Shown: positions 1-37,170, counted from the stretch's first letter. The stretch is DNA of 64,000 nucleotides from Candidatus Bathyarchaeota archaeon (GCA_963780185.1 CAWABA010000010.1:1-64000), one strand, 5' to 3'. Translations and numbers: made by a program. Notes: generated by a model not told the origin, from the letters alone.

Positions 1-1486
1 AATTTACAGCTTAATAGGCTTCACCATATTTGCTCTATTCATAGCCTATATTACGCGAGGCAAACTCTGGAATAAACTTGCGATTCTAGTTATGGGCATA
101 CCGCTTATTTTAGTGTTAAACATTATTCGAGTAACAACCATTCTCGCAATTGGCTATAACTTTGGAGAAGACCTGGCGCTCACTTTATTTCATGACGTCG
201 GTGCTACTGTACTCATGTTCATAGGGGTACTTGTTTTGCTTGGTGTAACTGACAGAGTTTTCAAAAAACCCAAACCAGCTGCTCCGTGCCCATCATGTTA
301 CCGCGTCAAAACGAAACCTGCTGGACCTTTTTGCAACACTTGTGGAAAACTTTTGCAATTTACAAAAATCAGGCTAAACAGAACAGACATAGTTAAAATC
401 ATAAGTATAGCCTTAGTTACAATCCTGATTTTGTCCATTCAAGCACCAGTTTTCGCGTTAACCCAAGGTCCACCCCAAGTTATGATTCTAACGCCCTCTG
501 GTACGCAAATAAACCCGGGAAGTTCGATGCTTCCAACCATCCAGGGATACACCGTAAAATATGCTTATCGAGATACGGCGTTCGAACAAGAATCAGGCGA
601 TAATGCAGCCTTAGTCTATTACTACAGCCCGATTAATGGTACAGGCTCAACCATTTGGGTATCCATGCAAATTGCAAGCAGTGTGACGTCTGAACACAGG
701 TGGGAAACATGCTTGATAAACTTCCCGGTCAGCGCAGGGGAAGCACCGACTGTAAACCAGCTGGACCTCAAAGATATTCAACTCCAAGATAACCCGCCTA
801 TCATGGCACGCTATTTCGCCTTCCAATACACAGGAACCAATCAATCCCAAGTTGTCCTTTACTGGTACGAAACAGCAAGCTTCGACACTAATAGCACTAC
901 ACAGTCAGAAAGCATCATGATTAGTCTCATAATGTATCCTTCCGCAGGCCACAGCGTGGCTTCTTACGAGACTCAGGAACTCCCATTTGCTCAAAGCATC
1001 AACAGCTACTGGGAGCCTATAAAAACCTGGAGCGTGATCTCTCTCGCATTATCCCAAAACGGTTTAGCCCTATCAGTTGCAGCTTCTGTAGTGTTCGGTA
1101 TATTAGTCGTGTACGAAGCTTTCCTGATAAGGAAAGAGAAAAAGTTGCTTCTTAATCTATATGGAAAATTGTCCACGCAAAACAAAAATATCGTTCAAGC
1201 CGTGGCGAATGCTAGAAAACAAGGGGCGTCAACAGTCGATGGCGTACTCGGCGAACTTCAAAAACTACTCGATTCAACAACAGATAAAGCGTTACTGAAC
1301 CAAAAGTTGACGGAAGCCGAGAATGCGGGGCTGGTTGAAAAAGCGATAGCCAACAAAAACGACGAACCTGTTATCAGCTGGAAGAGTCAAGTGCCGTCGC
1401 AAAACTCATTTTTAAGTCGTCTGGGTAGATTCGCAAGTTCAGTAATGCGCATCATCGTTCATCTCCGACGTCCCAAGCTAAAATAG
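1..1486 (+). CDS. Exosortase/archaeosortase family protein (5'-partial) fused to Zn ribbon, EpsI-like domain and C-terminal soluble domain
   Basis: Frame is open from nt 2 (IYSLIGFTIF...). Has N-x-x-R (LNIIRV) and FHD exosortase motifs; the catalytic Cys is expected just upstream of the window. Also CPSC...CNTC and EpsI-like EHRWETC and VLYWY motifs. Confidence 0.85.
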   Translation, partial: IYSLIGFTIFALFIAYITRGKLWNKLAILVMGIPLILVLNIIRVTTILAIGYNFGEDLALTLFHDVGATVLMFIGVLVLLGVTDRVFKKPKPAAPCPSCYRVKTKPAGPFCNTCGKLLQFTKIRLNRTDIVKIISIALVTILILSIQAPVFALTQGPPQVMILTPSGTQINPGSSMLPTIQGYTVKYAYRDTAFEQESGDNAALVYYYSPINGTGSTIWVSMQIASSVTSEHRWETCLINFPVSAGEAPTVNQLDLKDIQLQDNPPIMARYFAFQYTGTNQSQVVLYWYETASFDTNSTTQSESIMISLIMYPSAGHSVASYETQELPFAQSINSYWEPIKTWSVISLALSQNGLALSVAASVVFGILVVYEAFLIRKEKKLLLNLYGKLSTQNKNIVQAVANARKQGASTVDGVLGELQKLLDSTTDKALLNQKLTEAENAGLVEKAIANKNDEPVISWKSQVPSQNSFLSRLGRFASSVMRIIVHLRRPKLK

Positions 1487-1810: not shown

Positions 1811-2869
1811 ATGAAAAAACGTGTAGTATTAGCTATGCTGCTTGTTACACTTTTTCTCGGCATGATTGGCTCAAGCATTTACGCTCAAGCACTTCAGGTT
1901 CAGATAGGTGTTCCAAGTAGCTCAAACGATTTAGGAATCAACTCCAGTAGCGGATTAACCAGCGCATACTGGGTTGGGCAGTTCCCAGTAACCATAAACT
2001 ACGGAACCTCACAGGCAACAACTGGCGAAGTCTATTGCATGAACGCAAACGGACAAGTATACGTAGGTGGTACCTACAACGCAGCCATGACGCCTGTTCC
2101 CAACACGTCTACTTGGCAACAAATCGGCTATATCCTAAGTTGGAACGCACCAACAACCAACGTTCAAGCAGCAGTCGACCAAGTGGCAATCTGGATGCTC
2201 CTAAATCAACAGCCATCGTCCTACGACTTCACCCTGGACTCATCAATAACGACCGCGGCCCAAAACATAGTTAACACGGTAACAGCCAACGGCGGCGTAA
2301 ACGTTGCTCTCGCAGGTGACCATCTGCAATGGATCAGCCCATTCGTCGGAGTAGAAGGCAGCGCCAACACCACATCCGCAAACCCAGGTGTACCCGTGAC
2401 TTTCACACTGAAACTCACCGATTCACAAGGCAACCCTGTGCCCAACGCACAAATCGATTTTGCAGCAACTATCACATCTCCAGGTGTAACCACAGCTACG
2501 CCGTTATCAGCACCATACATAAGCAGCTCCTCAGCATTCACGGATAGCAGCGGAATAGCGCAAGTTACTGTAACCGCACCGGCTGGAACAACAGCAGACT
2601 CGAAAATTGCCGTTACAGCTTCGACGCAGAGTACTTGGCCAGTAGAATACTTGGATCTTACCGACCAGACCGGTCAGGGAAACACGCAAGACCTAATCGG
2701 AATCGGCCAAACACTGCTCATGACAACATCATTCAACGTCAACATATCCGGAAGCATATTCGTTATGCCTGAATCAGCATACGGAGCACTCAGCGCAGTA
2801 GTAGCATTCGCAGCAGCCTTCCTAATGTACTACAAACTTAAACCGCAAGCAAAGCAACCAAAACTCTAA
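1811..2869 (+). CDS. Secreted surface protein with putative thioester (TED/TQXA-like) and Ig-like domains, PES-CTERM sorting signal
   Basis: Signal peptide MKKRVVLAMLL; single Cys in EVYCMN; DQVAIW; Ig-like TDSQGNPVPNAQIDF; TQDLIG; VMPES + TM + basic tail. Confidence 0.75.
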   Translation: MKKRVVLAMLLVTLFLGMIGSSIYAQALQVQIGVPSSSNDLGINSSSGLTSAYWVGQFPVTINYGTSQATTGEVYCMNANGQVYVGGTYNAAMTPVPNTSTWQQIGYILSWNAPTTNVQAAVDQVAIWMLLNQQPSSYDFTLDSSITTAAQNIVNTVTANGGVNVALAGDHLQWISPFVGVEGSANTTSANPGVPVTFTLKLTDSQGNPVPNAQIDFAATITSPGVTTATPLSAPYISSSSAFTDSSGIAQVTVTAPAGTTADSKIAVTASTQSTWPVEYLDLTDQTGQGNTQDLIGIGQTLLMTTSFNVNISGSIFVMPESAYGALSAVVAFAAAFLMYYKLKPQAKQPKL

Positions 2870-2879
2870 ATGGTCCAAG

Positions 2880-2916
2880 TGCGCCGTGCTGTCGGCGCAT
2901 TTTTTTAACTTTTTTT
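2880..2916 (+). terminator. Hairpin plus T-tract terminator
   Basis: TGCGCCG-tgctgt-CGGCGCA followed by two T7 runs just after the stop at 2869. Confidence 0.6.
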
Positions 2917-3100
2917 AAAAAGCTAAATCTAGTCGGTGAAAATCGCCGAGCTATCTTATAGATTCTCTTTTTGCCATGTTTTATTTTGCTATAGACGTAA
3001 GTCTATCGCAGTCTCGTTTTCTGGTAAGGAAGCGCTTGGACGTAAGAAGGGCTTTATTGATTGACCACCTTTCCTTGGCATTCGGGGAGAGAGAATTCGA

Positions 3101-3409
3101 ATGCTGTTCACAGGAACTGGGAAGGGTGAACTCTATTCAACACACACGGTTAATCGAAAGGTCTTATTCACAGTTTTGCTGTTGCTTTTAATTGCGATTT
3201 CTATTGTATTTGTAGCTTACTTGACTGTGCCAAGTCACCACCCATCGACCCCTCCATCGGTTGCTGCCTCGCCTACCGCCTCACCACCTGGTACACAAAT
3301 GTTCGTAGCGCCGGAATATGGTTGGGACGCATTGCTTGCTCTTCTAGCAAGTTTCGCGTCACTAGCAGTGTTCAAAACGCAGAATAGAAGAAAAAAAGTT
3401 GCTGATTAA
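3101..3409 (+). CDS. Small PEY-CTERM membrane protein
   Basis: N-terminal TM, Pro/Ser/Thr linker, VAPEYGW + TM + RRKK. Confidence 0.7.
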   Translation: MLFTGTGKGELYSTHTVNRKVLFTVLLLLLIAISIVFVAYLTVPSHHPSTPPSVAASPTASPPGTQMFVAPEYGWDALLALLASFASLAVFKTQNRRKKVAD

Positions 3410-3444
3410 CAAATAAGCAAAAGATTGACTGGTTAGAGCGAATT

Positions 3445-3912
3445 TTAGCCGGTTCCTGATATAGTTATGATGTTGGTGAAGGTTGTGAAGCCTGTTACCT
3501 TGGCGGACACGGTCAGCGTGATTGTTGCACCTACTGATTTCCCTGCTGCGAGTTGGGTTCCCTGGCAATTCCAACTTACGGTTACGTAGGTGCCTGCTGT
3601 TGCGGGGATCCAGCTACTTGAAGCCAAGCTCAGAGTCATTGTTCCTGTGCCCACGTTCTTGACGTAGACCGTTTTAGTTGTGGATCCTCCGGCCTTCAGT
3701 GTCCCCCAGTTTATTGCTGCCAAGTTAATCGTGCAGGCGCTGTTGGAGAAGACCCCGACGTTTGGAGTATTAGTCTTGATATTTCCAGATGAAGGAAGGC
3801 TTTTCGCGGCATTTACAGCTGAGAACGCTGTAATGGATGTCCCGATGATTAGGGTGATTGCCACCGTTAATAAGGCTGCAAATGCCAGTTTTGTTGCTTT
3901 ACTGGTTCCCAT
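3445..3912 (-). CDS. Secreted TasA/CalY-like filament subunit (paralogue 1)
   Basis: Signal peptide, SSGNIKT strand, INWGTLKAGGSTTKTVYVKNVG, no C-terminal anchor; paralogous to 4406-4870 and 7282-7731. Confidence 0.6.
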   Translation of the reverse strand: MGTSKATKLAFAALLTVAITLIIGTSITAFSAVNAAKSLPSSGNIKTNTPNVGVFSNSACTINLAAINWGTLKAGGSTTKTVYVKNVGTGTMTLSLASSSWIPATAGTYVTVSWNCQGTQLAAGKSVGATITLTVSAKVTGFTTFTNIITISGTG

Positions 3913-4012
3913 CTGATTCTTCCTCCATTTGTGCTTTTTTCCAACAAAAATCACGGAAAAAAATCATTTGATTGCTCTCAGAATGTTCTGTTCACGCTAA
4001 GGGCAGGCCTTC

Positions 4013-4129
4013 GAAATCCCTTCCTGACGGGAGCGGAAAAAGAAAAAGTTTCTTCTCAGACACTTCTCTAAAAAACGAACTTTGCCCTAACGAGAAGATA
4101 CTGTTCAATCTATTTAAGAGACTATGGAT
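4013..4129 (-). promoter_or_regulatory. Conserved upstream module (TATA plus leader motif), copy 1
   Basis: Blocks AAATCCCTTCCTGACGGRAGCGGAAAA and TGCCCTAACGAG...TATTTAA...CTATGGAT recur at 4942-5065. Confidence 0.6.
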
Positions 4130-4405
4130 AACTTATCCTTGATTTTCCCTGTTTCATTCATTTCTTAAAAAATACTTGCCGACACATTGGATTGCACAAA
4201 AACGATGCCAATCGGATTCTTGGGGGGCGTTGTCTTGCTATATTTGTAGTCTATTATTGCTTGCGTTGTTCAAGACCAAAAAGAAAAAACTTGGGAGGTA
4301 ACGGGCAAACCAAGGCTTGTTGCAATTACCTTTTTTGGGTCAGGCGACAAACTTGTTTTCACTTTAAGATGTGTTCCCTGGAATTAACTTTGAAGAACTT
4401 AAGTT

Positions 4406-4870
4406 TTAGCCTGTGCCTGATATGGCGATTGAGTTGCTAAAGGTTGTGAAACCCGTTACTTGGGAAGAAATCGTCAGTGTGATTATTGCCGCCACTGACT
4501 GTCCGGCTGCGAGTTGGGTTCCCTGTTGGTTCCAACTTATGGTGAGATAGGTGCTTGCTGAGGTTGGGCTCCAATTGCTTACGGTCAAGCTTAGGGTCAT
4601 TGTGCCTGTGCCTACGTTCTTGACGTAGACAGTTTGAGTTATGGTTCCTCCTGCTTCTACGGATCCCCAGTTTATTGCGGTCATGTTTATGGTGCATGCG
4701 CTGTCTGAGAAGACGCCTAGGTTGGGTGAGGTTGTGATCGTTCCAGAAGAGGCAACGCTCTTGCTGCTGGTTACAGCCGACAATGTCGGCACAAGTGTGG
4801 TAACGGTTAGGGCGAGCGCGACTGCAATTAAGGCGACAATTGCCAGTTTTGCCGCCCTACTGATTTGCAT
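4406..4870 (-). CDS. Secreted TasA/CalY-like filament subunit (paralogue 2)
   Basis: Signal peptide, SSGTITT, INWGSVEAGG...VYVKNVG, ends ISGTG. Confidence 0.6.
   Translation of the reverse strand: MQISRAAKLAIVALIAVALALTVTTLVPTLSAVTSSKSVASSGTITTSPNLGVFSDSACTINMTAINWGSVEAGGTITQTVYVKNVGTGTMTLSLTVSNWSPTSASTYLTISWNQQGTQLAAGQSVAAIITLTISSQVTGFTTFSNSIAISGTG
4643..4752. repeat. 110-bp perfect inverted repeat, left arm (pairs with 7385-7494)
   Basis: Reverse complement is identical to 7385-7494 by base-by-base comparison; flanking bases mismatch. Confidence 0.95.
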
Positions 4871-4941
4871 GAAACTTTCACCTCCTTCAGCTTTTATCGG
4901 GCATAATAAACGAGATAATCAAAAGAAACATACAGAGCTCC

Positions 4942-5065
4942 AAAATCCCTTCCTGACGGAAGCGGAAAAGAAAAAAAAGACTCTATTTAGCTGATTTATC
5001 AAAAGACGATGTAATCTATGCCCTAACGAGTAGGTACTCTTGACTCTATTTAAACGGCTATGGAT
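4942..5065 (-). promoter_or_regulatory. Conserved upstream module (TATA plus leader motif), copy 2
   Basis: Same two blocks as 4013-4129; TTTAAATA on the minus strand at about 5047-5054. Confidence 0.6.
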
Positions 5066-5305
5066 GAGTTCTATGGATGAATTATCTCTATCTGATGTTT
5101 TTTGCATTATCCTTTTTTGAGATACTGATTGTTATCCAATCGTTTTAGCCGCTAGCCAATTGTTTGTTCGTGCGTATTATTAGTTTTTCAAATTAAGCCT
5201 TTCCCTGCCTACGAATGAACTCGACTTTGTAGTAGAAAAAAGTTCAACTTTTTCTATAAAGATTTAAATCAATAGAAAGTGATAACTAGGTTGCTAGAAC
5301 GGTGA

Positions 5306-6286
5306 ATGGAGAATCAAGAGTTCATGTTTGCGCAAACGGTCAACCGTAGGTTTAATTTTTCATCAAAATTGCGCATAAGAATAATCATAAGTCTTGCAAT
5401 CCTGGTTCTAGCATTAGCCATAGTTTTTACTGATTCTTTCCTGTCACGCCCTATTAGCAATGAATCCACGCTGCCGATCAGTCACACGACATCCTTGTTT
5501 CCGTCTAACCGCTCGGTGCATGTAAACGATAATGGCACGACAGGCATCATAGTTGACATTAGCGGTGACACGCTGTCGAACAGCTCGTACTTTACGGTTA
5601 CCACCACGAACAGTGGCCTTCAATCTCCCCAGAATGCGAGTCCGTTGACAGTTGGTAACCTGATTGTTGTAGGCTACTTTGACGTAAAAGTAACAACAAA
5701 CATGACTTTAACCCCGCAAATACAAGTAAAAATCACCATAACAAACTCCAACTTCAACCAAAACAGCGCAATATACTATTGGTACTCAACGGCACGAAAC
5801 TGGATTTCCGCAGCTACAGGCTTTCAATCGCCCCACACCATAATCGGTACCATCGAAGCAATTTACTTAACAGGAACCCCGATAGGCATCGGCAACGGCA
5901 ACACATCTACGCCTACTCCCACGGCATCGTCTTCCCCAGAAACCACACCCACCCCTTCCCCATCTCCCACACCGGGTCAACCCGCCTCTGACATAGTTAC
6001 ACCCTCGCCTTTCCCCACCCCAACTGCCACGCCTTCTCCCACACCTACACCGTCTCCTTCCCCAACCGTCTCCCCATCGCCTTCTCCAACAATGACGCCG
6101 ACCCCAACGCCAACTAATTCACCCTCTGATTCATCTTTGCCTTCTCAAACGCCTTCAGCCTCGCCTATCGCTCCTCCACTCGTTACACCCGAATATGGCT
6201 GGGGCGGATTGCTGGCGTTACTTGCATGTTTCGGCGCCCTCGCACTGTTCAAAACAAGAAATGATGCCAAAACAAAAGAACCTTGA
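5306..6286 (+). CDS. Surface protein with long Pro/Thr/Ser linker and PEY-CTERM sorting signal
   Basis: N-terminal TM, beta-rich domain (YFDVKV, IYYWY), (TP/SP)n linker, VTPEYGWGG + TM + basic tail. Confidence 0.8.
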   Translation: MENQEFMFAQTVNRRFNFSSKLRIRIIISLAILVLALAIVFTDSFLSRPISNESTLPISHTTSLFPSNRSVHVNDNGTTGIIVDISGDTLSNSSYFTVTTTNSGLQSPQNASPLTVGNLIVVGYFDVKVTTNMTLTPQIQVKITITNSNFNQNSAIYYWYSTARNWISAATGFQSPHTIIGTIEAIYLTGTPIGIGNGNTSTPTPTASSSPETTPTPSPSPTPGQPASDIVTPSPFPTPTATPSPTPTPSPSPTVSPSPSPTMTPTPTPTNSPSDSSLPSQTPSASPIAPPLVTPEYGWGGLLALLACFGALALFKTRNDAKTKEP

Positions 6287-6515
6287 ATTAGTGACGCCCG
6301 AAAAGCCGTGAATTGCTACAGTAACACGTTCTTTTTTGTTTCCTCACCTGCAGGCAGCGCTCCGCAAGTTGTGAATCGTTGAATGCCGAAGTGGAGTAGA
6401 CATTGAGGACCAGAATGATCCATTTGTCATTTTAATAGAAAAACAAAATCCAGTTTTAGAGGGCAAAAATTTTCGTTTTCAATAAAATTAAACAACACTG
6501 CTTTTTAGCGCGTTA

Positions 6516-6971
6516 TTAAGTTGCGTGAAGCCAACCGCGTCCGCCTTTTTTAGGTTGGTGGATTTGTTTTTTGTCGGCACAGGGTGCACTATGCTCTTTT
6601 TTCTTGGGGTTGCTGCTGGAGATTTTTGTTTTTACGAACTTGTTCCAACCTCCGGTTTGTGCGTCTGGCTGTATGAAGCGGTCAGGATTCGCAACAAGGT
6701 GTTTTTCAAGGATTTCCTTGAAAGTTACTGTCTTAAAGTCTCGGTTTGCGTGGATGATTGTGCCTTGCTCTACGCTCAGGTCGGTGTAATCTTTAAGCGA
6801 GACATCTTCTGCTCGTATCTTGTCGTTGAAGCGTTCACTCCATAAGAGTTTCCATTGGATTTTGAGCGACTCAACAAGCTCCTTTTGTGCTTTGATCTTA
6901 GCCTCGTAACCTTCCGCGCAAGCTTCGGGTAATGGGTTATTGTTTACCTGCAACTTAACTCCCTTTTCCAT
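6516..6971 (-). CDS. Hypothetical soluble protein
   Basis: 151-aa ORF with ATG start and charged composition; no motif recognised. Confidence 0.65.
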   Translation of the reverse strand: MEKGVKLQVNNNPLPEACAEGYEAKIKAQKELVESLKIQWKLLWSERFNDKIRAEDVSLKDYTDLSVEQGTIIHANRDFKTVTFKEILEKHLVANPDRFIQPDAQTGGWNKFVKTKISSSNPKKKEHSAPCADKKQIHQPKKGGRGWLHAT

Positions 6972-7281
6972 GTCGCCATTCCACCCGAATTATATAACTC
7001 TTATTCTAGAAAAAGACATATACTTTTCTATAGTCAGACTTTTCGGTTTCAAACTGAATCATCATCAATCATGTCAGTGACTTGAGAATGTAGGTGATTT
7101 GTGTGTCTTGACTTTGTGGTTTTCCTTAAATTGAGGCGGGAGGCAATCTTTTGTTGTTTTTGAAACTTTTTTTGTTGTTGTTGCATTTCTGATGTACAGT
7201 TGGGGGTGTGTATTATTATTAAGTAATATTTATTAAGTCTTAATACACCGCTTTTAAATAAGTAGGAAGGTCAAAACTAAA

Positions 7282-7731
7282 ATGCAACTCTCCAAACCAT
7301 TGATAATGATAATCGCCTTAGTGGTTGTGGCAACAACACTAACAGCCTACACATTAGCAACCCTAAACGTAAACAAAAACCTATCCTCTTCTGGAACGAT
7401 CACAACCTCACCCAACCTAGGCGTCTTCTCAGACAGCGCATGCACCATAAACATGACCGCAATAAACTGGGGATCCGTAGAAGCAGGAGGAACCGCCAAC
7501 CAAGTTTTCTATGTTCAAAACACGGGAACCGGAACCTTGACTCTAAGCTTAACCACAAGCAACTGGAGTCCATTGGGAGCGGGCACCTATCTCACCATGA
7601 GCTGGAACCAACAAGGAACCCAACTTCCAGCCGGGCAATCGGTCGCCGCAACAATCACACTGACTGTGTCCTCTTCCATAACGGGAATTTCGAGTTTCAG
7701 CAACTCAATCGCCATAACGGGATCCGGCTAA
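7282..7731 (+). CDS. Secreted TasA/CalY-like filament subunit (paralogue 3)
   Basis: Signal peptide, SSSGTITT, INWGSVEAGG, FYVQNTG, ends ITGSG. Confidence 0.6.
   Translation: MQLSKPLIMIIALVVVATTLTAYTLATLNVNKNLSSSGTITTSPNLGVFSDSACTINMTAINWGSVEAGGTANQVFYVQNTGTGTLTLSLTTSNWSPLGAGTYLTMSWNQQGTQLPAGQSVAATITLTVSSSITGISSFSNSIAITGSG
7385..7494. repeat. 110-bp perfect inverted repeat, right arm (pairs with 4643-4752)
   Basis: Exact reverse complement of 4643-4752. Confidence 0.95.
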
Positions 7732-7939
7732 GTCAATCGGCAGTCTTTTTCTAAAAAGGTTTATGAATTGTTGATGTGCCCTGAGGCAAGAAAGGTATTT
7801 TTCACTTCTTGGTTCAGACATTCAAATCCAACATTTTAAGATATCTTCCAAAACGATTACGGTTAAACATTTTTTTGTTCGGTTCTAAGAGTACCTGAAG
7901 TTTTTCCCGACATCGCCGAGATGATCATCGGGATTCTTT

Positions 7940-8215
7940 TTAGGGTTTCAAAAATTTTTTCGAAGACGCCTTTTTGTTTGACGATTCGATAAATCTTCCG
8001 ATTTCGATTCCGCCGTATACACCGAGCAGCACGTCCCCTCCTATGAACAAGAATAGCGTTGGTACATCCTTGGACTCCAAAATTGTGTATCCGTTACTGG
8101 TCAACCCTGAAGTGTAGCTGTAAGTGTACAGAACCAAAGCAAATGCGAAGATTACACATATAAGCCCAAGGAGAAAACTTGGCAACCTCGGTTTTCCAGC
8201 AGCCGCTACAACCAT
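7940..8215 (-). CDS. Small two-TM membrane protein
   Basis: Two hydrophobic segments, basic tail, GAGGAGG-type SD upstream. Confidence 0.65.
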   Translation of the reverse strand: MVVAAAGKPRLPSFLLGLICVIFAFALVLYTYSYTSGLTSNGYTILESKDVPTLFLFIGGDVLLGVYGGIEIGRFIESSNKKASSKKFLKP

Positions 8216-8349
8216 CCCTCTGTCCTCCTCCTCTTACTTTGTTATGCTTACCATTTAAGTTCTTTCATTTAAAAAGCAACAAATCTGGCGTCAGCCGCTG
8301 AAAAGCTTTCTTGAATCGGAAAGGAAGAACTTTTGACTATAGATCAGGT

Positions 8350-8970
8350 TCATTGGATTTCTAAGATGAAGTCTATTGTTGAGCCAACTGCCGCGTTCGG
8401 GTTTGCGTAGCCAACAATTTCAATGTAGTTTGTCGTGTTTGCTGCCATGGTGTAGGCGTTGATTAGGCTGATTGTTCCGCCAGATGTGTCGGTTAAGGTG
8501 GCGGAGCCTATGGGCAAGCCGTTTTGGGGGTTGTCTGTCTGCGTGGCATAGTAGTAGACAGTTAGGCTTCCCAGGTTTGACGCGCCTGTTATACCAGATA
8601 TTGTTATGCTATTGATACTGTAGTTGGTTTTCCCGGTGTTAGTTATCTGTAGTAAGTTGGTGTAGTAGGTTGCAGGTTGAGGTGTGCATGCTGTTGAGGG
8701 GAAAAGGCTGAATGTTATTGTTGCGGAATCCTCTGTTGGGGTGATGGCCACCGTTGCGGCGGGGTAAGTTGTTGGGTCGGTGGTGCTGTCTGGGCCTGCA
8801 ACGAGGCATATGTCGCGCGTTTTTAAAGCGGCGTTGTTTTGTGTTGAGTGTATGATGAATGAGGCGCTGGCTGTGCCGATGAGCATTGCTGAGGCAATTA
8901 AAAGGAGAGGTAGACATTTAATTAAGGTGTTTTTGGCGGCTGTTTTTGGTCGATGTATGAGTTTTTTCAT
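8350..8970 (-). CDS. Secreted beta-rich protein (family 2, paralogue of 10856-11461)
   Basis: Signal peptide; LKTRDICLVAGPDS, PQPATYYTNLLQITN, TNYIEIVGYA. Confidence 0.8.
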   Translation of the reverse strand: MKKLIHRPKTAAKNTLIKCLPLLLIASAMLIGTASASFIIHSTQNNAALKTRDICLVAGPDSTTDPTTYPAATVAITPTEDSATITFSLFPSTACTPQPATYYTNLLQITNTGKTNYSINSITISGITGASNLGSLTVYYYATQTDNPQNGLPIGSATLTDTSGGTISLINAYTMAANTTNYIEIVGYANPNAAVGSTIDFILEIQ

Positions 8971-9139
8971 TATCTACTCGGCTGCTTGTCATTTGAGCTA
9001 TCTTCAGTGTTCGTTGAAGAATTTATTAATTATGAAGTCTCAATATTTAATCAAAAATTGGAGCATTAATCAAAACTAATTAAGGAAAAGTGAATATTTT
9101 CTTTTTTCTAACGCGACGCCAAAAAAGCCTCTCGGATGT

Positions 9140-10766
9140 CTAATTTAACAAAAGGTTCATTGCGTCGTTGAAAAATGGTCCAGCGGCAGGCGTGGCTTTA
9201 ATCAGCACTATTATGTTTGAGTTGCCGAATGCGTTGGCGGTTGCGTACAGTCTTACGTAAAGTGTCGAACCGGCTGGTAAGGTTAGGGTTGGACCTGAAG
9301 ACTGCGTTAAAGCGCCGTTAGTCACAATTATCTCTTGCGTGCTAGGTGAATATGCCGAGAGAGTCATGTTCAGAATGCGAGTAATGGCGGAAGAACTGTA
9401 AGTTGAGAGGCTAACTGAATAGGGTGAAGATGCAGAATTCGTCAGGGTTAGAATGTAATCGTAGTCGGCTGGCGTCTGAAAATTCGTTGTTTGTCCAGGT
9501 CCCCAGTAGATCGTGAAGGTTATCCCGCTTCCAGTCGGATTTGTAATGTTCGCAATGAGTCGACCACCCGTGGGAACGCTGATTTGTGAACCAGTGAAAG
9601 CTGTTTTGACTTCAGATTTTGATGTTCCAATTGTTCCTGTAGTTCCGCTTGCAGCAGAAGCTACAATATTATTTGATGAATCTGACGCAGAGAAGGTAAC
9701 GCTAAGAACGCCTGCGGAGGTTGCGGAAGCCCAAAAATCCGTCATCCATGAACCAGAATAAACTGAGGTGACAGTTGGAACGGCTGGGGAGCAGAGAAAT
9801 GCTGAAGAGCCGGGTGCTATTGCAAATGAACCGGTTAAAGTCTGGACAAAAAAGTCCGTGTTCTGAACGATGGAAGTTTGCGCTTGCTGAACTGCGTCGC
9901 CGATCATGGCCCAGTCCGCAGTTTTGGATGTCGAGAAACTTACTGAAAGAGCGGTTTGTTTTGTTGTTGCCACCGCGTATTCGGCTGCTTCATTAATCGG
10001 GTCGATGCTGACTTGGCTGCCTATGTTAATGAAGCCTGCGCCGTATGTTATGGTTTCACTTCCCGTTACCCTCGCCGCTAAGGCTCCAATAATAAAATCG
10101 TTTGAATTCAAAGTTGATAAAGTCACAGACATAGATGTGCCGCTTCCAGTGCCGGAAATTGGCGCGGACAAGTTGGGGTCAAACGGGTTTGGTGTTTTAG
10201 CGCCGGCGATCCCGAAGACTTTTACTGCGCACTTTACACTGGACGTAAGTGAAACTGTTACAGTTCCTGAAAAGACGGTTGTTGAGATGGCGTACCATGT
10301 TTCAATTCTTGTAGTGTCAGAGGTTGCCGTGCCTCTCTGAATCCAGAAAAGGCTCGCGCCTGTGTTGGTGATTGAAGAAACGCTGATTGTGCTGCTGTCG
10401 ATGGCGGCTGTTAAGTAGATTACGTCTTTTGGCTTGCTTGTTGTCTAGTGTGCCTGTGGTTACGGAGGCAGCGTTGGCGCTGCCGCTTGTTTCTCCATCT
10501 ATTGCCAGGGCGTAAGAACTTGGTGCGCTTGCGTTCTCATAGAACTTGTAACCTGAAGTCGCAACGACACTTCCATAGTCGTTGGTAGTTGAAAGAGACA
10601 TGCTTCCTTTAGTTCCAATGTCGAGTGTAACTTGGGGTGTCTTTACGGTAGACACCGAACTGCCAAAATATTGTGTTTGTTTGAGTGCTGAAACTTGGCA
10701 AAAAGAGATTAATAGAAAAAAAGCAAGAAGCAAAGGCACAGCTTTGTGGATGTATTTAATCTTCAT
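9140..10766 (-). CDS. Large secreted family-2 protein with inserted beta-sandwich domains (one frameshift near 10445)
   Basis: ORFs 10317-10796 and 9140-10171 join if one G near 10445 is removed (GTL-TTSKPKDVIYLTAAID...RIETWYA...FDPNLSAP); VKTPQVTL at the N-terminus and DYDYILTLTN near the C-terminus. Confidence 0.7.
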
Positions 10767-10855
10767 ACTGCTTAGACGGGTTTGCCGTTTTCCCAAAGCC
10801 TTTTACTTTCTCCTTTGCTGCTTTAATTCGGTTTAACTTTGTGACTTTACAATGG

Positions 10856-11461
10856 TTAAGACCATTGTATGGCTGCGGTAAAGCTTATCGTTGAACCTGC
10901 TGCTGCGCCTGGGGCTGCGTATCCAACAATCTCAATGTAGTTTGTAGTGCTTGCTGCCAGAGCATGGGGACTGCTTAGTAGATTAATTGTGCCTGCTGAA
11001 GAGCTGCTTAAGGTTACAGAACCAATAGGTGAACCGCTCTGCGGGGAATCTGTTTGCGCTGCGTAATAATAGATCACTATGCTTCCAAGGTTTGATGCGC
11101 CTGATATGCCTGAAATCGTGATGGCGCTTATTGAGTGGCTGGTTGTGCCGGCATTTGTTACTTGCAGTAGATCAGTGTAGTATGTTGCGGGTTGAGGCGA
11201 GTTCGTTGCGGAAGGGAACAAACTGAACGCCACTGCTGCGGAATCATATGTTGAAGCAACTGTTACGGTTGCGGCTGGGAAAGCTGTGGGACTTGCGGTG
11301 CTGTCTGATCCAGCGACTAGTCTAACATCTGGGGTTTTTACTGTTGCGTTGTAGTTTGCCGAGAAGGTTGTGAATACTGCTGCGCTGACCAAGCCGACGA
11401 AGATTGCGACCACGATAATTGGAAGCAGTTTTCTAGCTTTACCTCTGAGAATATTATTCAA
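10856..11461 (-). CDS. Secreted beta-rich protein (family 2, putative major subunit)
   Basis: TTG start with GGAGG SD; signal peptide; VKTPDVRLVAGSDS; PQPATYYTDLLQVTN; no anchor. Confidence 0.8.
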   Translation of the reverse strand: MNNILRGKARKLLPIIVVAIFVGLVSAAVFTTFSANYNATVKTPDVRLVAGSDSTASPTAFPAATVTVASTYDSAAVAFSLFPSATNSPQPATYYTDLLQVTNAGTTSHSISAITISGISGASNLGSIVIYYYAAQTDSPQSGSPIGSVTLSSSSAGTINLLSSPHALAASTTNYIEIVGYAAPGAAAGSTISFTAAIQWS

Positions 11462-11848
11462 GCCCTTTCCTCCTTCGGAAAACCGTTCATGAACGGCAAT
11501 ATAAAGAATATGCTTTTTGTCGTAATATTACGAAAAAAGTTGAAAAAGGCCGCTTTTCAGGTTTTGTTCCTGTTATTTTATTCAAATTTAGGTGCGTTAT
11601 TTTAGTAAGTAACCGCTGCTGTTCAACCGATCAAAACTGAGTTTTGTTTTATTTTCTGAGCTTGTTGGGTGAAACTTGTCTGGCTTGTGGAAACTTGAGA
11701 CCCGCCGCGGCGGAGTGAAAATACCTGAAAGCTAAAACATTAGGGAAAGTTTTCTATGTTTTCGCGCCAAATTTTCTAAGGGATTTTATATACCGGTAAC
11801 TTGATAGAGTAAAGCAAACGTTAGGAATACGCTCATGAGGACAATAGG

Positions 11849-12841
11849 ATGAAATCTAACAGAATCGTCATCGTACTATCAGTTCTCATTGTTTTTGCCT
11901 TGATCTTCAATTTATGTTATGTCCAGGCACAAACTGAAACCAAGTTCGGTAACGTTTACAGCGACGATTCTTGGAATAGTTCAGGAGGAGTGGTTGTCGC
12001 CTCTCAATTCACAATTTCACAGAGTATCACGATAACTTGGATGAGCGCATTGATAGGCGACCTCGCGCCGCCTTCTTTTGTTAGGTTAGGCATCTTTAGC
12101 GATAGCAACAATCTACCATCTGCATGCTTGGCATCAACCCGCGAATTCCCAACCAGCAGCACGGACGCTGTTTGGTGTACATTTCCTCTTTTAAACTCAA
12201 TAACACTTCAAGCAGGAACCTATTGGCTAGCTGAAATTGACTCTGGCGCGGGTGTAGAAAAGACCTATTTTAATGAGGGTCCGGGAAGCTTTAATTCAGT
12301 ATTTGCTTTTTCAGACAGTTTCATGGGTCAATTGGATGTTGGAAGCACCTTCCCAACATCAGTGACAAGTCTTGATGGAACTCTAGCGATAATTGCAAGT
12401 TCCGGTCAATCTTCCAACTCAGAAATTCCTACGCCGCCAACTTACGCGGAGAGTGCTCAATGCTGGGCCTCAGCTAGCGATTCAAACCCGTATCCAACGC
12501 AAACAAGCTTTGCTGTAGGTTCCCCAGTTTACATTTATTGGACTCCGAGCAACCCGAGTACGGGAGTTGTCGATATTAGCGTCTACTACCCAAGCGGGAC
12601 ATCTCCCGGACACGACACTCTATGCTCATTTAATGATCAGGCTCCTGGAAACGCTCCTGTCAGTTTTGTTCCTGATAGACCGGGTACTTGGGTCGTCACT
12701 TGCAACGGCTATTCAACCGACATATTTGTTTTGCCGCTGACCGTTTTTGCGCTTCCTGAATATGCCTTGGGCGCTCTGTTGTCGTTGATAGCTTGTTTTG
12801 CTGCGTTAGGCGTATTTGTAAACAAAAGGTTTCGATCTTAG
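11849..12841 (+). CDS. Secreted surface protein with PEY-CTERM signal
   Basis: Signal peptide; beta-sandwich-like VRLGIFSD...LQAGTYWLA; ALPEY + TM + KRFRS. Confidence 0.8.
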   Translation: MKSNRIVIVLSVLIVFALIFNLCYVQAQTETKFGNVYSDDSWNSSGGVVVASQFTISQSITITWMSALIGDLAPPSFVRLGIFSDSNNLPSACLASTREFPTSSTDAVWCTFPLLNSITLQAGTYWLAEIDSGAGVEKTYFNEGPGSFNSVFAFSDSFMGQLDVGSTFPTSVTSLDGTLAIIASSGQSSNSEIPTPPTYAESAQCWASASDSNPYPTQTSFAVGSPVYIYWTPSNPSTGVVDISVYYPSGTSPGHDTLCSFNDQAPGNAPVSFVPDRPGTWVVTCNGYSTDIFVLPLTVFALPEYALGALLSLIACFAALGVFVNKRFRS

Positions 12842-12978
12842 GCGGTTTTGATTCCTAAAACGGATTTTGCAACTCTGAGCCTAAGTTTTTCTAACAAGAT
12901 TATTAAAGAAAACTTGGTTAGGAAATTAAAAAACTAAAAAAAAATTAAAAAAGAGTAGAAAGCCGTGTTTCTATGGCT

Positions 12979-13998
12979 TTACACGTTTATTGACCGTTTA
13001 GACTTCGCGTAGATCAGGAAAGCTGCTGCGAATGCAACTAAGGCGGCGAGTGCTCCGTATGCTGATTCAGGCATAACGAATATGGATCCTGTTATGTAGA
13101 CGTTGAAGGTCGCTGTTAGGCCGAGAGCTGGGCCTACTCCGAGCAAGTTTTGTGTTGTGGGCGTTGCGGTTGTGAGGTCTAAGTATTCTACTGGCCAAAC
13201 ACTTTGGGTTGAGGCTGTGACTGCGATTTTTGAGCCGTACGCTGCGTTTGAGGGGACGGTAACGGTGACTTGTGCTATTCCGTTAGTGTCTGTGAAGGCT
13301 GTTGCCGGGACAAAGTATGAACTTGATAATGGAGTCGAGGTAGTTGATGATGGTGGAGTTACGGTTGCGCTGAAGTCAATTTTAACGTTGGCTTTTGCGT
13401 TGCCTGAGGAATCTGTGAGTTTCGCTTGGAAGACTACTGTGTTGCCTGGAAATGCTGAGGTGGAGACGGTTGTGCCTGTGCTTGGTGAAATCCATGTTAG
13501 TTGGTCGCCTTTGAGCGCTACGTTCATGCCGCCGTTTGCTTTCGCCTCGTTTACCAAGGTGGCTGCAGGGCCTGTGATTGAGGAGTCTAAGCTGAAGTCA
13601 GTGTACGGTGGGTTTTGTCCGAGGAGCATCCAGATTGCGACCTGGTCGATTGCTGCTTCGCTGTTGGTTGTCGGTGAGTTCCAGCTTAGGATATAGCTGA
13701 TTTGTTGCCATTTTGGTTCGTTTGGGACTTGTACTTCGCTGTATGGGTACGATGTGCCTTCGTAAACGGTGCCGCCTGAAGTCATACAGTAAGCTTCACC
13801 TGTTGCGGATTGAGAGGTTCCGGGGTTGATTGTAACTGGAAATTCTCCAACCCAGTAGCTGCCAGAAGTGATGCCTAAGTCATTTGGATTGCTTGGAACA
13901 CCTATCTGGACAGTGCCTGCTTGTGCATAAACTGCTGCACTCATTGCTGCAAACATTAATCCCGCGAGGAATACGGTTAATATGATTTCTTTTTTCAT
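12979..13998 (-). CDS. Paralogue of 1811-2869: putative thioester-domain surface protein, PES-CTERM
   Basis: Single Cys in EAYCMT; DQVAIWMLL; TTQNLLG; VMPESAYGAL + TM + KSKR. Confidence 0.75.
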   Translation of the reverse strand: MKKEIILTVFLAGLMFAAMSAAVYAQAGTVQIGVPSNPNDLGITSGSYWVGEFPVTINPGTSQSATGEAYCMTSGGTVYEGTSYPYSEVQVPNEPKWQQISYILSWNSPTTNSEAAIDQVAIWMLLGQNPPYTDFSLDSSITGPAATLVNEAKANGGMNVALKGDQLTWISPSTGTTVSTSAFPGNTVVFQAKLTDSSGNAKANVKIDFSATVTPPSSTTSTPLSSSYFVPATAFTDTNGIAQVTVTVPSNAAYGSKIAVTASTQSVWPVEYLDLTTATPTTQNLLGVGPALGLTATFNVYITGSIFVMPESAYGALAALVAFAAAFLIYAKSKRSINV

Positions 13999-30301: not shown

Positions 30302-31822
30302 TTAGGTGTGTTCTTTGTATTTGTTGAGTAGCTCGGTTCGCTGGTCGATGAGTTGTTGAAGGCTATTTTTGATTTTCTCTGTAACTTCTGCCATTGTTGT
30401 AACTTCTGTCACTACGGTGTTTGAATTCTTTCCTACGATTTCAACTTCGGCCAGTATTTCTTTAGCTGCGTTCTCAACTTTAGCTGCGTCGTCAACAACG
30501 CCAAAAGCCAGTTTTGCCATTTCCTTAGCTTCGCCGACAACGTTCTCAGTTACCTTGGCCACTTCTTCTGCAGTGCCTGAAACCTCTTTGGCTAATGCAG
30601 CCATTTCCTGTGAAGCGGCTGTTTGCTCCTCAATTGCTGAAGAGGATTCTTCTGATGCAGAAGAGCTTTCCTCAGCGATGCTGGCTACTTCTTCAATTGT
30701 TTTGACAACTGTGCCTATTGCCTCGAGTCCTCGATCAACACCCTTTGCGAGGTTGTTTACTTTGCCTGTCATTTCACCCATTATCTGAGCGATTCCTTCG
30801 GATTCATTGATTGCCCCTGAAACTACTCGTGCGCCTTCAGCTGCACCCGCCTGTGACTGTTGGGTAATGTTGCTTGTTTGGACGCCTGCTTCTTTGATGC
30901 CTTTTACCAGGTTAATTGCTGATCCTGCTGCGATTTTTGATTGACCTGCTAAGCCTTTCACGGCATCGGCGACTACTGCAAAGCCTCTGCCTGCTTCGCC
31001 AGCCCTAGCTGCTTCGATAGCGGCGTTTAATGCAAGCATGTTTGTTTGGCCCGCAATGTCTGATACGGAGTTAGCCATTTGTCCGACTTGCTCAACAGAA
31101 TTAACCATTGAAGTGACGGCTTCTGAAACTCGTGTAATGTTGTTTTTGATGTTCTCTATCGCTACTAGTCCTTTCTGGCCTTTATCGTTAGCTTCTTTTG
31201 ACTTCTTTAAAGCGTTCTCTGTTACTGCTGAAGCTTCTTTAGCAATAGTCCCTGCGTCGTCCATTACTTTCTTTAATGCTTCTGTGCTTCTGGCTGCGCT
31301 TTGCGATAATTCGGCTAGTTTTTGCGCGCCTGACGCTACTTGTTGAGAAGCAGTGCTGACTTGTTGCATGCCGACTGCCATTTGGTTTGAAACGTTTGCC
31401 GCCTGCCTACCCATCTCAGCTACTTTCGACGTTTCTCTTGTTGCGCCTTCTGCACCTACAGCCACTTTGTTTGCGACTTCTTCAACGTTCTTGGCGCTTG
31501 CACTTACCTTAACAACTATCGCTGTTGTGCCGATTGCCAACTCACCGACTTTACCGGCTGACTGCATTGCTTGGAATGCGAGATCTGCAGCTTTCGCCGC
31601 GTTTTGAATTGTCTCATCCGCCTGTACATTGATTTCTTGGGCGCCTTTTATGGCATCTTCAAGAATATCAACAATTTCTTTTCGAAGAGCTTTGTTCTCT
31701 TCTTGTAAGCATTCGTTTTCTTTTTCAAGTTTTTCTAATTGTTTTTCTAATTCGGGATTACTTTTTTCTCGGGTTTCGCCAGTCATTCTTAATACTTCCG
31801 TCTGTTTCCCTTTCTTTTGCAC
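30302..31822 (-). CDS. Soluble methyl-accepting chemotaxis protein
   Basis: [33 protein letters not shown] hairpin; no TM segments. Confidence 0.95.
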
Positions 31823-31879
31823 CTTTGTTTATAATTAGATTATGACCGTTGTATATTGATTCTAAATCAAGACGGAAAA

Positions 31880-32893
31880 TTAGTTGCAGGCTTTCATAAT
31901 TTCTTTTGGAATTAGCTCCAACGCGGCAACCACATCAACGCATCCGGTTTGAAAAGCAGCGTTAGGCATGCCATAGATGACGCTTGTTTTTTCGTCTTGA
32001 GCTATTGTTATTCCGCCTTTTTCTTTAATCGCTTTAATCCCTTTGGCGCCGTCTGCACCCATGCCGGTTAAGACGACCCCCACGTTCTTCTTTTCATTTA
32101 CCTGTGCCGTTGAAATCATAGTTACGTCAGCGGAAGGGCGGACAAAGTTAACTGGGGGATCCTTAGTCAATCTTATTTTTTTCTCTTTAGTCACAATCAT
32201 ATGGAAACCTCCCGGGGCAAGGAGAGCAAGACCTTCTTGAATTGTATCGCCGTTTTCTGCTTCCTTTACTCTGAATTTGCATTTGCCGTTCAGGTCTTCA
32301 GCGAAAAGTTTTGTTACCCCTGTGGGCATGTGCTGCACAATCAAGATACCTGGTACTTCCTTTGGAAGTATCTTTAGAACATTGGCAATTGCAGGCGGGC
32401 CGCCTGTGGAAGCCGCTATCGTTATTATCTTTTCACTGGATTTAATTGAAGAACTCAAGTTTTCATGAATTCTCTTATCTGTTTGTATGATGTTAGCGCG
32501 GGCCGCCGTTTTGATTTTCGAGATTAATTCGTCCTTTACTATTTGCATGTTGAGTGATATTGAACCTGATGGTTTAGCCACATAGTCAACCGCGCCATAT
32601 TCCAATGCCTTCAACGAGGTTTGGGCTTCTGTTGGCGTCAAAGCGCTGATCATTACAATTGGCAAAGGACTCGTTTGCATAATTCTTTGAACTGCAGTTA
32701 AACCATCCATCCGGGGCATTTCAATATCCATTGTAACAACATCAGGACGCAAACTAGCGATCTTCGAAAGTGCTTCTTCGCCGTCTCTTGCTGTCCCAAC
32801 AACTGATATTTCTTGATCTGAATGCAGTATATCCTGAAGAATCTTCTGCATAAACAAGGAATCGTCAACGACAAGTAGCTTGATTTGACCCAT
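31880..32893 (-). CDS. cheB: Chemotaxis methylesterase CheB
   Basis: REC domain (VVDDS, MDIEMP) plus ASTGGP, VQHMP, TGMGADG. Confidence 0.97.
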   Translation of the reverse strand: MGQIKLLVVDDSLFMQKILQDILHSDQEISVVGTARDGEEALSKIASLRPDVVTMDIEMPRMDGLTAVQRIMQTSPLPIVMISALTPTEAQTSLKALEYGAVDYVAKPSGSISLNMQIVKDELISKIKTAARANIIQTDKRIHENLSSSIKSSEKIITIAASTGGPPAIANVLKILPKEVPGILIVQHMPTGVTKLFAEDLNGKCKFRVKEAENGDTIQEGLALLAPGGFHMIVTKEKKIRLTKDPPVNFVRPSADVTMISTAQVNEKKNVGVVLTGMGADGAKGIKAIKEKGGITIAQDEKTSVIYGMPNAAFQTGCVDVVAALELIPKEIMKACN

Positions 32894-32944
32894 AAAGACC
32901 ACAAATAGAAACAAGATGGACGAAGCGAATTGGAACTCCTGGAT

Positions 32945-33460
32945 TTACGGTTTCGGTTGGTTTTCCACGTGGATTTGGAAGCCTCTGGATTCTTCTTTCA
33001 AGTTTCCAGAGTTTTTTGATGCTACCTTTACGAAGTCTATGAGGATAATCAGTTCTTTGTCGTGTTTGGCTACGCCCAGTACTGCTTCGGATTTATCAAC
33101 AATCAAGCTTTCGGGGTTCGATTCTATGTCCTTTTTTGAAAGGGTCAGGACTTCCATAACTGAATCGACCATTACGCCAACGGGGTGTTTATCTTGTACA
33201 ATAATCATGATGTTTGTGTTTTCATCTTTTTTGTCGCCTAATCCGAAACGTTTCCGCAAGTCTATAACGGGGATTACTTCACCGCGAAGGTTTGTTATGC
33301 CCTTGACGTAATCAGGCGCATACGGGACAGGAGTTACTCCTTCAAAGTTTTTTACTTCCCGAACCTGATTAACATTAACGCCATACAAGACGTTGTCTAG
33401 CGTAAATGTCAGCATCTGTATTTCTTCAATTTGGCTTAATTGTTCGTTCATATTTGCCAT
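32945..33460 (-). CDS. cheW: Chemotaxis protein CheW
   Basis: TPVPYAPDYVKGITNLRGEVIPVIDLRKRF, GVMVDSV. Confidence 0.97.
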   Translation of the reverse strand: MANMNEQLSQIEEIQMLTFTLDNVLYGVNVNQVREVKNFEGVTPVPYAPDYVKGITNLRGEVIPVIDLRKRFGLGDKKDENTNIMIIVQDKHPVGVMVDSVMEVLTLSKKDIESNPESLIVDKSEAVLGVAKHDKELIILIDFVKVASKNSGNLKEESRGFQIHVENQPKP

Positions 33461-33584
33461 CCATTCTTCACCTAGGCTTTTGAATTTAGTTAATGGCTAT
33501 TCTGAAGTGTTATAAGTCGATTATGAAAAGCAAGTACATATTTGAAATTCTTATCTTAAATCGGGGAAAAATACCTATTAAAAA

Positions 33585-33929
33585 TTAGACTATGTAGCTT
33601 GCATTTCCAACGTACGGAAGCTGGTTTCTCAGCCAGTCCTCGCTCATGAGACACCATTTTGAGTCGGTTCCCTCTATTTGTAACACCATGATTAAGTCCA
33701 GCTTATCCAACTTCGCGTATTCTAGGAGTACATCATAGGTGCTTTGGTTTATTTCAATGTCTAAATCCTGAGATCCATTATCTGCCGCTCGTTTAGCATG
33801 GAAAACATCTCTGATTTTGTCAGCCCCTTCTTGAATTTGCACGTTGACACCGTTGACATAATATATTTTGTCGTTGTAGCTGAGGATGACGTTTCGTGCG
33901 TTCCCCGCTTTCACTTCGGTATGCTCCAA
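33585..33929 (-). CDS. Hypothetical protein inside the che cluster
   Basis: 114-aa ORF co-oriented with the che genes; no motif recognised. Confidence 0.6.
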   Translation of the reverse strand: MEHTEVKAGNARNVILSYNDKIYYVNGVNVQIQEGADKIRDVFHAKRAADNGSQDLDIEINQSTYDVLLEYAKLDKLDLIMVLQIEGTDSKWCLMSEDWLRNQLPYVGNASYIV

Positions 33930-37161: not shown

Positions 37162-37170
37162 CTCTAACTA

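Follow-up and report, generated by a model that had tools for sequence, protein, structure and literature searches.

The stretch of DNA analysed here (the window, 64,000 nucleotides of Candidatus Bathyarchaeota archaeon, GCA_963780185.1 CAWABA010000010.1:1-64000) carries two paralogous genes whose products resemble the thioester domain (TED) adhesins of Gram-positive bacteria. Paralogue A (P0001) is an open reading frame (ORF) of 352 amino acids (aa) at 1811-2869(+), and paralogue B (P0002) one of 339 aa at 12979-13998(-); their alignment shows 60% identity across 344 columns (E 9e-120). The two proteins have the same architecture, with a signal peptide, an ectodomain similar to class II TEDs and a C-terminal sorting tail. 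For P0001 this description draws on the ORF, the Pfam TED profile, a structural model and fold matches, and for P0002 on the ORF, the alignment with its paralogue and the same profile.

Both N-termini read as Sec-like signal peptides ending in YAQ-A; the one predicted for P0001 (MKKRVVLAMLLVTLFLGMIGSSIYAQ, 1811-1888(+)) has a basic N-terminus, a hydrophobic core and a cleavage site kept in relatives. Each protein contains a lone cysteine, the candidate thioester cysteine: Cys76 of P0001 lies in EVYCMN (YCMN at 2033-2044(+), codon 2036-2038) and Cys71 of P0002 in EAYCMT (YCMT at 13780-13791(-), codon 13786-13788). A single cysteine is not unusual in itself, given that 74 of the 364 ORFs of 300-400 aa in the same genome encode none or one. 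The hexapeptide DQVAIW, which corresponds to the TQxx(hydrophobic)W helix motif of TEDs, occupies residues 123-128 of P0001 (2177-2194(+)) and 118-123 of P0002 (13630-13647(-)). In P0001 it is followed by an inserted immunoglobulin-like (Ig-like) beta-sandwich, residues 168-283 (2312-2659(+)). A candidate thioester glutamine comes late in both chains: Gln293 in the TQDLI strand of P0001 (2684-2698(+), codon 2687-2689) and Gln283 in TQNLL of P0002 (13141-13155(-), codon 13150-13152). Both proteins then end in VMPES, a hydrophobic helix and a Lys/Arg tail, which is KLKPQAKQPKL in P0001 (2762-2866(+)) and KSKRSINV in P0002 (12982-13077(-)). The original prediction had named this whole series, from the single cysteine in a YC motif to the basic tail, and each element is found in its place in both paralogues.

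Published definitions of the TED allow these motifs to be interpreted. The bond-forming cysteine has the signature [YFL]C-hydrophobic-hydrophilic, and its partner glutamine lies in a late beta-strand within the weak motif (hydrophobic)Q(hydrophilic)(hydrophobic)(hydrophobic) (PMC4450167, PMC6194298). Contact with the backbone of the cysteine is all that the TQxx(hydrophobic)W helix contributes; it takes no part in the bond, is dispensable (PMC4450167, PMC6194298), and has no fully conserved residue in its motif (PMC4450167). In class II TEDs, a beta-sandwich of ~75 residues is inserted after the third helix and before the glutamine strand, and the barrel is completed by a hairpin on which the glutamine returns (PMC6194298, PMC4450167). 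YCMN/YCMT, DQVAIW and TQDLI/TQNLL fit the three published motifs, with Asp standing for Thr in DQVAIW, and the spacing from Cys to Gln is 217 residues, compared with 171 in SaTIE and 204 in EfmTIE86 (PMC6194298). Since the definitions match the YC motif, the helix, the insert and the late glutamine alike, the earlier assignment of these four elements is the correct reading of the domain. The glutamine of TQxA(I/V)W was also considered as the bond former and rejected, as both papers contradict it.

The same residues stand out in the alignments. Alignment A5 holds 57 sequences, down to ~20% identity with P0001, and in it Cys76 and Trp128 are invariant (57/57 each), Ala126, Gln293 and Pro320 are kept in 56/57 and Gln124 in 55/57. 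The sole sequence without glutamine at column 293, P0074, has one a column later. In the wider alignment A4 (74 sequences), Cys76 is present in 73/74, with one gap, and Gln293 in 66/74, with five gaps and three substitutions. Across A5 the columns around the cysteine read [Y/F/W]-C-[M/I/V/L]-[D/T/N/E/Q] and those around the glutamine x-Q-[D/N/Q]-[L/I]-[I/L/V]. Two A5 sequences have alanine at position 124 and retain both Cys76 and Gln293, which fits a dispensable helix glutamine and an essential late one. Because the cysteine, the tryptophan of DQVAIW and the late glutamine are among the most conserved positions of the family, the motif set goes beyond chance, and the conservation of Cys and Gln on which the thioester proposal depended is borne out.

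Sequence profiles place the N-terminal part of the proteins near the TED family, at the border of detection. The Pfam TED model (PF08341) matches P0001 at residues 74-157 with 18.9 bits (E 0.0021, profile positions 2-100 of 102) and P0002 at residues 69-152 with 15.2 bits; it is the only non-Ig family matched by both paralogues. When the whole genome (2.75 Mb) is searched in six frames, PF08341 has one match, the P0001 gene (22 bits, E 4.6e-4). The best-scoring Pfam families on P0001 are Big_1 and MG4, at residues 184-273. Among 5.8 billion proteins, a word-indexed search found 15 relatives, the sole named one being a 'hypothetical protein' of Candidatus Bathyarchaeia archaeon. A profile of the N-terminal lobe (N-lobe), built from nine sequences of the window and related loci, retrieved 86 representatives at E <= 1e-3 from 1.84 billion proteins. 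The Pfam scan covered 74 proteins, namely the profile representatives and the first relatives with short fragments left out: TED is matched at E <= 0.01 by 27/74, the best at 9.3e-8, and Big_1 by 42/74. Among ten relatives of the same length and tail type, 8/10 match TED at E <= 0.1 and 4/10 pass its cut-off (P0024 28.8, P0049 28.5, P0029 27.3 and P0034 23.8 bits). Recognised members score little higher on this model: the class II TED of the Bacillus subtilis plasmid pLS20 has only 24.6 bits, and a protein named 'thioester domain-containing' by NCBI 21.5 bits, so that a borderline score is normal for class II members. The profile test of the thioester proposal thus gave a divided answer, positive for the relatives above the cut-off and for the match unique in the genome, borderline for P0001 and P0002 themselves, which hmmscan leaves below it.

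The predicted fold points the same way. An AlphaFold2 model of P0001 was computed from the 57-sequence alignment for residues 27-322 (residue numbers of the model are lower by 26 than those of the full-length protein) and reached a predicted local distance difference test (pLDDT) of 93.6 and a predicted template-modelling score (pTM) of 0.90. The modelled N-lobe has six strands, the fifth of which (43-50) has the cysteine as its last residue, and three helices, 74-85, 91-104 and 118-135, the second bearing DQVAIW. After the third helix comes an all-beta block (145-257), with Ig matches covering 141-296; the glutamine lies at the start of strand 266-272 (268-272 in a narrower delimitation), and a long return strand follows (279-292). 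The overall fold of the model is TED-like, a beta-barrel plus three-helix bundle with an Ig-like sandwich between helix 3 and the glutamine strand. An earlier model from 15 sequences, now superseded, had a pLDDT of 69.5, with residues 15-86 of the N-lobe mostly below 50; its top Foldseek matches were already 6fwv and 6fwy.

In the comparison with TED structures proposed in the original prediction, the best matches speak in its favour. When the 57-sequence model is searched against the PDB with Foldseek, ranks 1-4 are taken by 6fwv and 6fwy (probability 1.0, E between 1.8e-8 and 4.3e-8), and a Staphylococcus aureus domain, 6fx6, follows as number 22. Entry 6fwv is the Bacillus anthracis TIE protein and 6fwy the thioester domain of Enterococcus faecium TIE86, both class II. 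A search of 48,161 representative chains that is independent of Foldseek agrees: the N-lobe is covered only by TEDs, in 5/5 such rows among the 50 matches listed. These rows are 5a0g (10.5), FNE 5dcq (10.2), Cpa 2xi9 (9.8), 6fwv (9.6) and 6fx6 (8.8). In VIA-align, the aligned ranges of the TED chains include the published bond residues Cys138/Gln267 (PMC4450167) and Cys426; the bond-forming glutamine of Cpa is Gln575. These ranges stop ~9 residues past the target glutamine, and those of the model 10-14 residues past its Gln267, which is Gln293 of the protein; the class I TED alignments reach model residues 277-281, and Gln293 is thereby included. The model is consistent with Gln293 occupying the bond-forming position.

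Taken together, both genes probably encode secreted, membrane-tethered class II TED proteins of a Bathyarchaeia archaeon, which would act as covalent thioester adhesins. The parts of this reading differ in strength. The profiles, the conservation and the fold matches make the identity of the domain as a TED highly likely, and the class II layout of P0001 and P0002 is supported. That a Cys-Gln thioester bond forms in them is likely by analogy with the solved domains.

In the proposed mechanism, the N-lobe would fold after Sec export into its beta-barrel and three-helix bundle; the chain would then leave the lobe after the third helix, build the Ig-like sandwich and come back with the strand of Gln293 (Gln283 in P0002), completing the barrel beside the strand with Cys76 (Cys71) at its end. 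With the Gln and Trp of DQVAIW holding the cysteine backbone, the thiol would attack the side-chain amide of the late glutamine, with loss of ammonia, to give a buried Cys-Gln thioester like those of solved TEDs. A nucleophile on the target, typically a lysine amine, could then open the thioester, leaving an isopeptide bond between target and glutamine: a covalent adhesin. The Ig sandwich would be the sole spacer. At the other end, VMPES, the helix and the basic tail would act as a tripartite signal resembling PEP/PEF-CTERM, and most likely an enzyme of the archaeosortase family, perhaps the product of the gene next door, would cleave the tail and attach a lipid. The motifs and their conservation, the profile homology to TEDs, the fold match, the make-up of the tail and the presence of the enzyme family are observed; formation of the bond, the target of the adhesin and the archaeosortase processing are inferred from them.

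The gene next door lies at 2-1486(+) and its product belongs to the archaeosortase/exosortase family (TIGR04178 scores 33.8 bits, its cut-off being 23, and 60.6 bits when the genome is searched in six frames), in line with the adjacent exosortase of the original prediction. Its 5' end is cut by the end of the contig. In its long C-terminal extension (~400 aa), the encoded protein combines a zinc-ribbon-like motif of four Cys (CPSC...CNTC) with additional hydrophobic segments and a domain of ~200 aa that matches no Pfam or NCBIfam family. Three further proteins nearby have tails comparable to those of the paralogues: a small protein ending in VAPEYGWDAL, a transmembrane segment and basic residues (3101-3409(+)), a protein of 326 aa with a linker rich in Pro, Thr and Ser and a VTPEYGWGGL tail of the same make-up (5306-6286(+)), and a 330-aa protein with an equivalent ALPEYALGAL tail (11849-12841(+)). 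Thus five proteins within 14 kb end in [V/A/L][M/A/T/L]PE[S/Y]xxGxL, a helix and basic residues beside a TIGR04178-positive gene, and the tails of P0001 and P0002 contain all three parts of the tripartite signal (motif, hydrophobic helix and basic cluster).

The rest of the genome has the same elements. Our own regular expression finds 38 PE-type tails, of which ~18 are by eye of the PE[YS]xxG type and the remainder of the type with a PT-rich linker and PEF; TIGR04178 has three matches above cut-off, one of them adjoining P0001. The substrates of archaeosortases and exosortases, reportedly described by Haft et al. in 2012, are said to be PGF-, PEF- and PEP-CTERM proteins. Such substrates share with the proteins here a short Pro-Glu motif that is followed by a hydrophobic helix and, at the very C-terminus, by clustered basic residues; the motif here is [VLA][MLA]PE[SY]xxGxL, which matches none of the curated models of Pfam or NCBIfam. 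In Haloferax, ArtA cleaves such tails and attaches a lipid (PMC7157517). By analogy, display of P0001 and P0002 by an archaeosortase is plausible, and somewhat favoured.

The two kinds of PE-type tail can be told apart in the genome: one has a Pro/Thr-rich linker, PEF or PEx and a helix (examples at C1:35493, C4:137589 and C10:55231), the other [V/A/L]xPE[Y/S]xxGxL and a helix with a conserved Cys-Phe (C6:899492 and C12:32782). Together with the three archaeosortase-family genes, the two tail types suggest separate enzyme-signal pairs. The family gene on C11 seems to have a frameshift at the 3' end.

Several results weigh against the reading as a whole, beginning with those that concern the anchor. 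Because base 1 of the window is also base 1 of contig C10, the enzyme gene is incomplete, with only its 3' part present. None of the five tails is matched by a curated sorting model of NCBIfam or Pfam at E <= 10, a negative that has to be read with the knowledge that short models are easily lost to filters. A homologue of the enzyme is found within 10 kb in 0/7 related loci. The truncated enzyme gene, the lack of a match to any PGF-, PEF- or PEP-CTERM model and the enzyme's absence beside the TED homologues of the seven loci would all suit a plain C-terminal transmembrane anchor, by which the proteins would be inserted in the membrane with no archaeosortase processing. This explanation does not account for the layout of motif, helix and basic cluster, which is that of exosortase/archaeosortase substrates, nor for a proline (Pro320) kept in 56/57 sequences, the 38 PE-type tails and three family enzymes in one genome, or the remote relatives that have true PEP-CTERM domains above the Pfam cut-off. 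A plain anchor is unlikely, though worth keeping in mind.

The remaining counter-evidence concerns the domain and its bond. The helix motif is DQ, not TQ, and both paralogues are under the Pfam TED cut-off of 22 bits by hmmscan. The NCBIfam scan gave no family for P0001 or P0002, and HMMER searches of PDB sequences with P0001 and with the profiles A1 and A5 returned no TED chain, profile A5 finding Ig domains only (intimin, invasin, complement). Profile alignment by hhalign with the TED of pLS20 gives a probability of 1.7% over 20 columns for the single sequence, and of 7.6% (E 0.0046, 103 columns, ending before the glutamine) for a four-sequence profile, for which only three homologues were found in the length range; the cysteine of the plasmid protein is paired with Cys76 in a match too weak to count. 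Neither LPXTG nor a stalk-domain family is found in P0001 or P0002 by sequence and Pfam. Finally, the superposition of the whole model on class II TEDs is poor (template-modelling score TMq 0.32), with a root-mean-square deviation (rmsd) of 10.6 Å over 235 residues for 6fwv and 8.2 Å over 208 for 6fx6. The model therefore places the sandwich differently with respect to the lobe than the crystals do, or is wrong in this.

The borderline profile scores and a lobe arrangement unlike that of solved class II structures would be compatible with a TED fold that forms no thioester, in which the cysteine is a free thiol with a redox, metal-binding or other role and the target is bound non-covalently. 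Such a protein would have little reason to keep Cys76 in 57/57 and Gln293 in 56/57 sequences, among the few positions that are at least 90% conserved at ~20% identity, and we consider the absence of the bond distinctly improbable. Surface proteins of the common Ig-domain kind, whose N-terminal domain is unrelated to TEDs and whose three motifs are coincidental, would agree with Big_1 and MG4 as the top Pfam matches on P0001, and with the commonness of ORFs with no cysteine or one; relatives exceed the TED cut-off, class II TEDs head the PDB matches for the model as a whole and all five N-lobe rows among the matches listed are TEDs, which makes coincidence very hard to believe. Kinship with alpha-2-macroglobulin or complement-type thioester proteins was rejected and can practically be discounted: there is no CxEQ and the sole cysteine sits in YCMN/YCMT, there is one Ig domain in a protein of 352 aa, the model shows no helical thioester domain of the macroglobulin type, and the Ig domains of intimin and invasin match nearly as well.

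Further genes of the window may belong with the two paralogues. Three paralogues of ~150-170 aa with an N-terminal hydrophobic segment (3445-3954(-), 4406-4870(-) and 7282-7731(+)) have weak Ig-like signatures, all below cut-offs: choice-of-anchor D at 22.9 bits, DUF7507 and Cep192/CARDB-like. Three copies of them also adjoin a TED homologue in the related locus L007, and a possible role for them is that of pilin-like or fibre subunits in the same surface island. Two other paralogues, of ~200 aa and with a signal-anchor-like N-terminus (8350-8970(-) and 10856-11461(-)), flank a 343-aa Ser/Thr-rich protein (9140-10171(-)); no credible Pfam or NCBIfam family was found for 8350-8970 or 9140-10171, the ORF at 10856-11461 lying outside the scan. 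A chemotaxis cluster at 30302-38498(-) encodes a methyl-accepting protein, CheA and CheR, with the CheA matching best a haloarchaeal CheA model (548 bits, below its cut-off of 950).

The host assignment agrees with the gene content, as the window also encodes archaeal-type functions: a beta-RFAP synthase family protein, the GTP cyclohydrolase MptA and CheA. Seven related loci were found with 12 full-length sequences among species-representative genomes; 6/7 are titled Bathyarchaeia or Bathyarchaeota archaeon and 1/7 Limnocylindrales bacterium. Neighbours are shared in one of the seven, L007, which has the 150-aa paralogues and the ORF at 6516-6971. At E <= 1e-5 the N-lobe occurs in 8/301 sampled genomes of the class, all in the window's own family, where it is found in 7/48 other genomes besides that of the window; the gene is therefore patchy and lineage-restricted. 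The exceptional locus, L002 (DATHCJ010000055.1), is titled Candidatus Limnocylindrales bacterium (Chloroflexota). It encodes a protein that is almost the same as P0011 and shares 48% identity with the window's protein; every other named relative of the latter belongs to Bathyarchaeia. The Chloroflexota title could reflect mis-binning or transfer.

The wider family is diverse in its C-terminal parts. Longer relatives of 526-541 aa (those of L002 and L004, and P0011, P0012 and P0015) are without the PE tail; their TED-like part is followed by a Flg_new_2 domain (similar to the InlB B-repeat) and, at the C-terminus, by a segment with GDLNG(D/E)GKV(D/N)FSDL, which by eye resembles a dockerin or EF-hand-like calcium loop. 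A remote subgroup of ~390-400 aa, or ~375-446 aa across the members named (P0054, P0055, P0059, P0062, P0067, P0070, P0072, P0077, P0086, P0088, P0090, P0092 and P0095) has YC, (hydrophobic)Q(hydrophilic)A(hydrophobic)W, an aligned late glutamine and several extra cysteines, and in place of a membrane tail a conserved helical C-terminal domain ending in ...AKTICDTINNL. The two members scanned, P0055 and P0059, have no Pfam TED match at E <= 0.1.

Short remote relatives combine the domain with a recognised exosortase signal. P0080 (215 aa) exceeds the TED cut-off with 27.5 bits and that of PEP-CTERM with 27.0 bits, P0085 has 22.9 bits against 22 for TED and 20.7 against 20.7 for PEP-CTERM, at or just above the limit, and in P0082 the PEP-CTERM is preceded directly by VQDLI. 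Lacking a sandwich, these short forms are class I-like with an exosortase signal. It is an evenly balanced proposition that thioester harpoons are not peculiar to Gram-positive bacteria and include a separate lineage tied to anchors of the exosortase/archaeosortase type and spanning Archaea and PEP-CTERM bacteria; in such a lineage, the form of Bathyarchaeia would be class II-like with a PE[SY] tail, and that of PEP-CTERM bacteria (P0080, P0085) short and class I-like.

On this reading, the Bathyarchaeia proteins would be the first covalent adhesins of Archaea, and the isopeptide bond would fix uncultured archaea of peat and sediment to organic particles or partner cells. Formation of the bond would extend covalent adhesion chemistry to Archaea and couple the TED to a different surface-anchoring system. 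It would also provide a testable molecular handle on the attachment of Bathyarchaeia to substrates or partners, and a compact single-Cys domain of ~290 aa from a non-pathogen for protein-ligation engineering.

The nearest published case is the prediction, in Halobacteria and Methanomicrobia, of proteins of the alpha-2-macroglobulin type with CxEQ, which have a different fold (PMC8416519), and a 2025 survey of archaeal surface proteins describes isopeptide domains, not thioester domains (PMC12617251). In the 2015 similarity searches, TEDs were found 'exclusively in Gram-positive bacteria', as stated in PMC4450167. Full-text literature searches gave no report of an adhesin-type TED from Archaea, with the proviso that automatic annotation of the relatives above the Pfam cut-off may exist.

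The closest known systems are the class II TEDs of TIE proteins (6FWV, 6FWY, 6FX6; PF08341; Miller et al. 2018, PMC6194298). As in P0001 and P0002, a strand ends in [YF]C, Qxx(hydrophobic)W lies on the second of three helices, and an Ig-like sandwich precedes the returning glutamine strand. The archaeal proteins differ in their host, in having DQ for TQ, in a sequence identity of 9-15%, and in having a tail of PE[SY], helix and basic residues instead of LPXTG, without an isopeptide/ester stalk; the lobe orientation in the model cannot be superposed on that of the class II crystals (rmsd 8-11 Å over the whole domain). Because of the VMPES-transmembrane-basic tail and the absence of a stalk-domain family, P0001 and P0002 are TED proteins and not strict TIE proteins. 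Class I TEDs (CpTIE 5A0G of Clostridium perfringens, Cpa 2XI9 of Streptococcus pyogenes, FNE 5DCQ of Streptococcus equi; Walden et al. 2015, PMC4450167) have no sandwich insert and possess an extra helix. TIEpLS20, the protein of plasmid pLS20, is similar in its single cysteine (YCID), its glutamine (YQRLM) and its borderline TED score; in contrast with the archaeal proteins it has 767-778 aa, CnaB-type stalk domains and a role in conjugation, and its C68S mutant is non-functional (PMC8092201). Set beside these systems, the domain and its chemistry are known, and what is new in P0001 and P0002 is the domain of life, the type of anchor and a minimal, stalk-less architecture.

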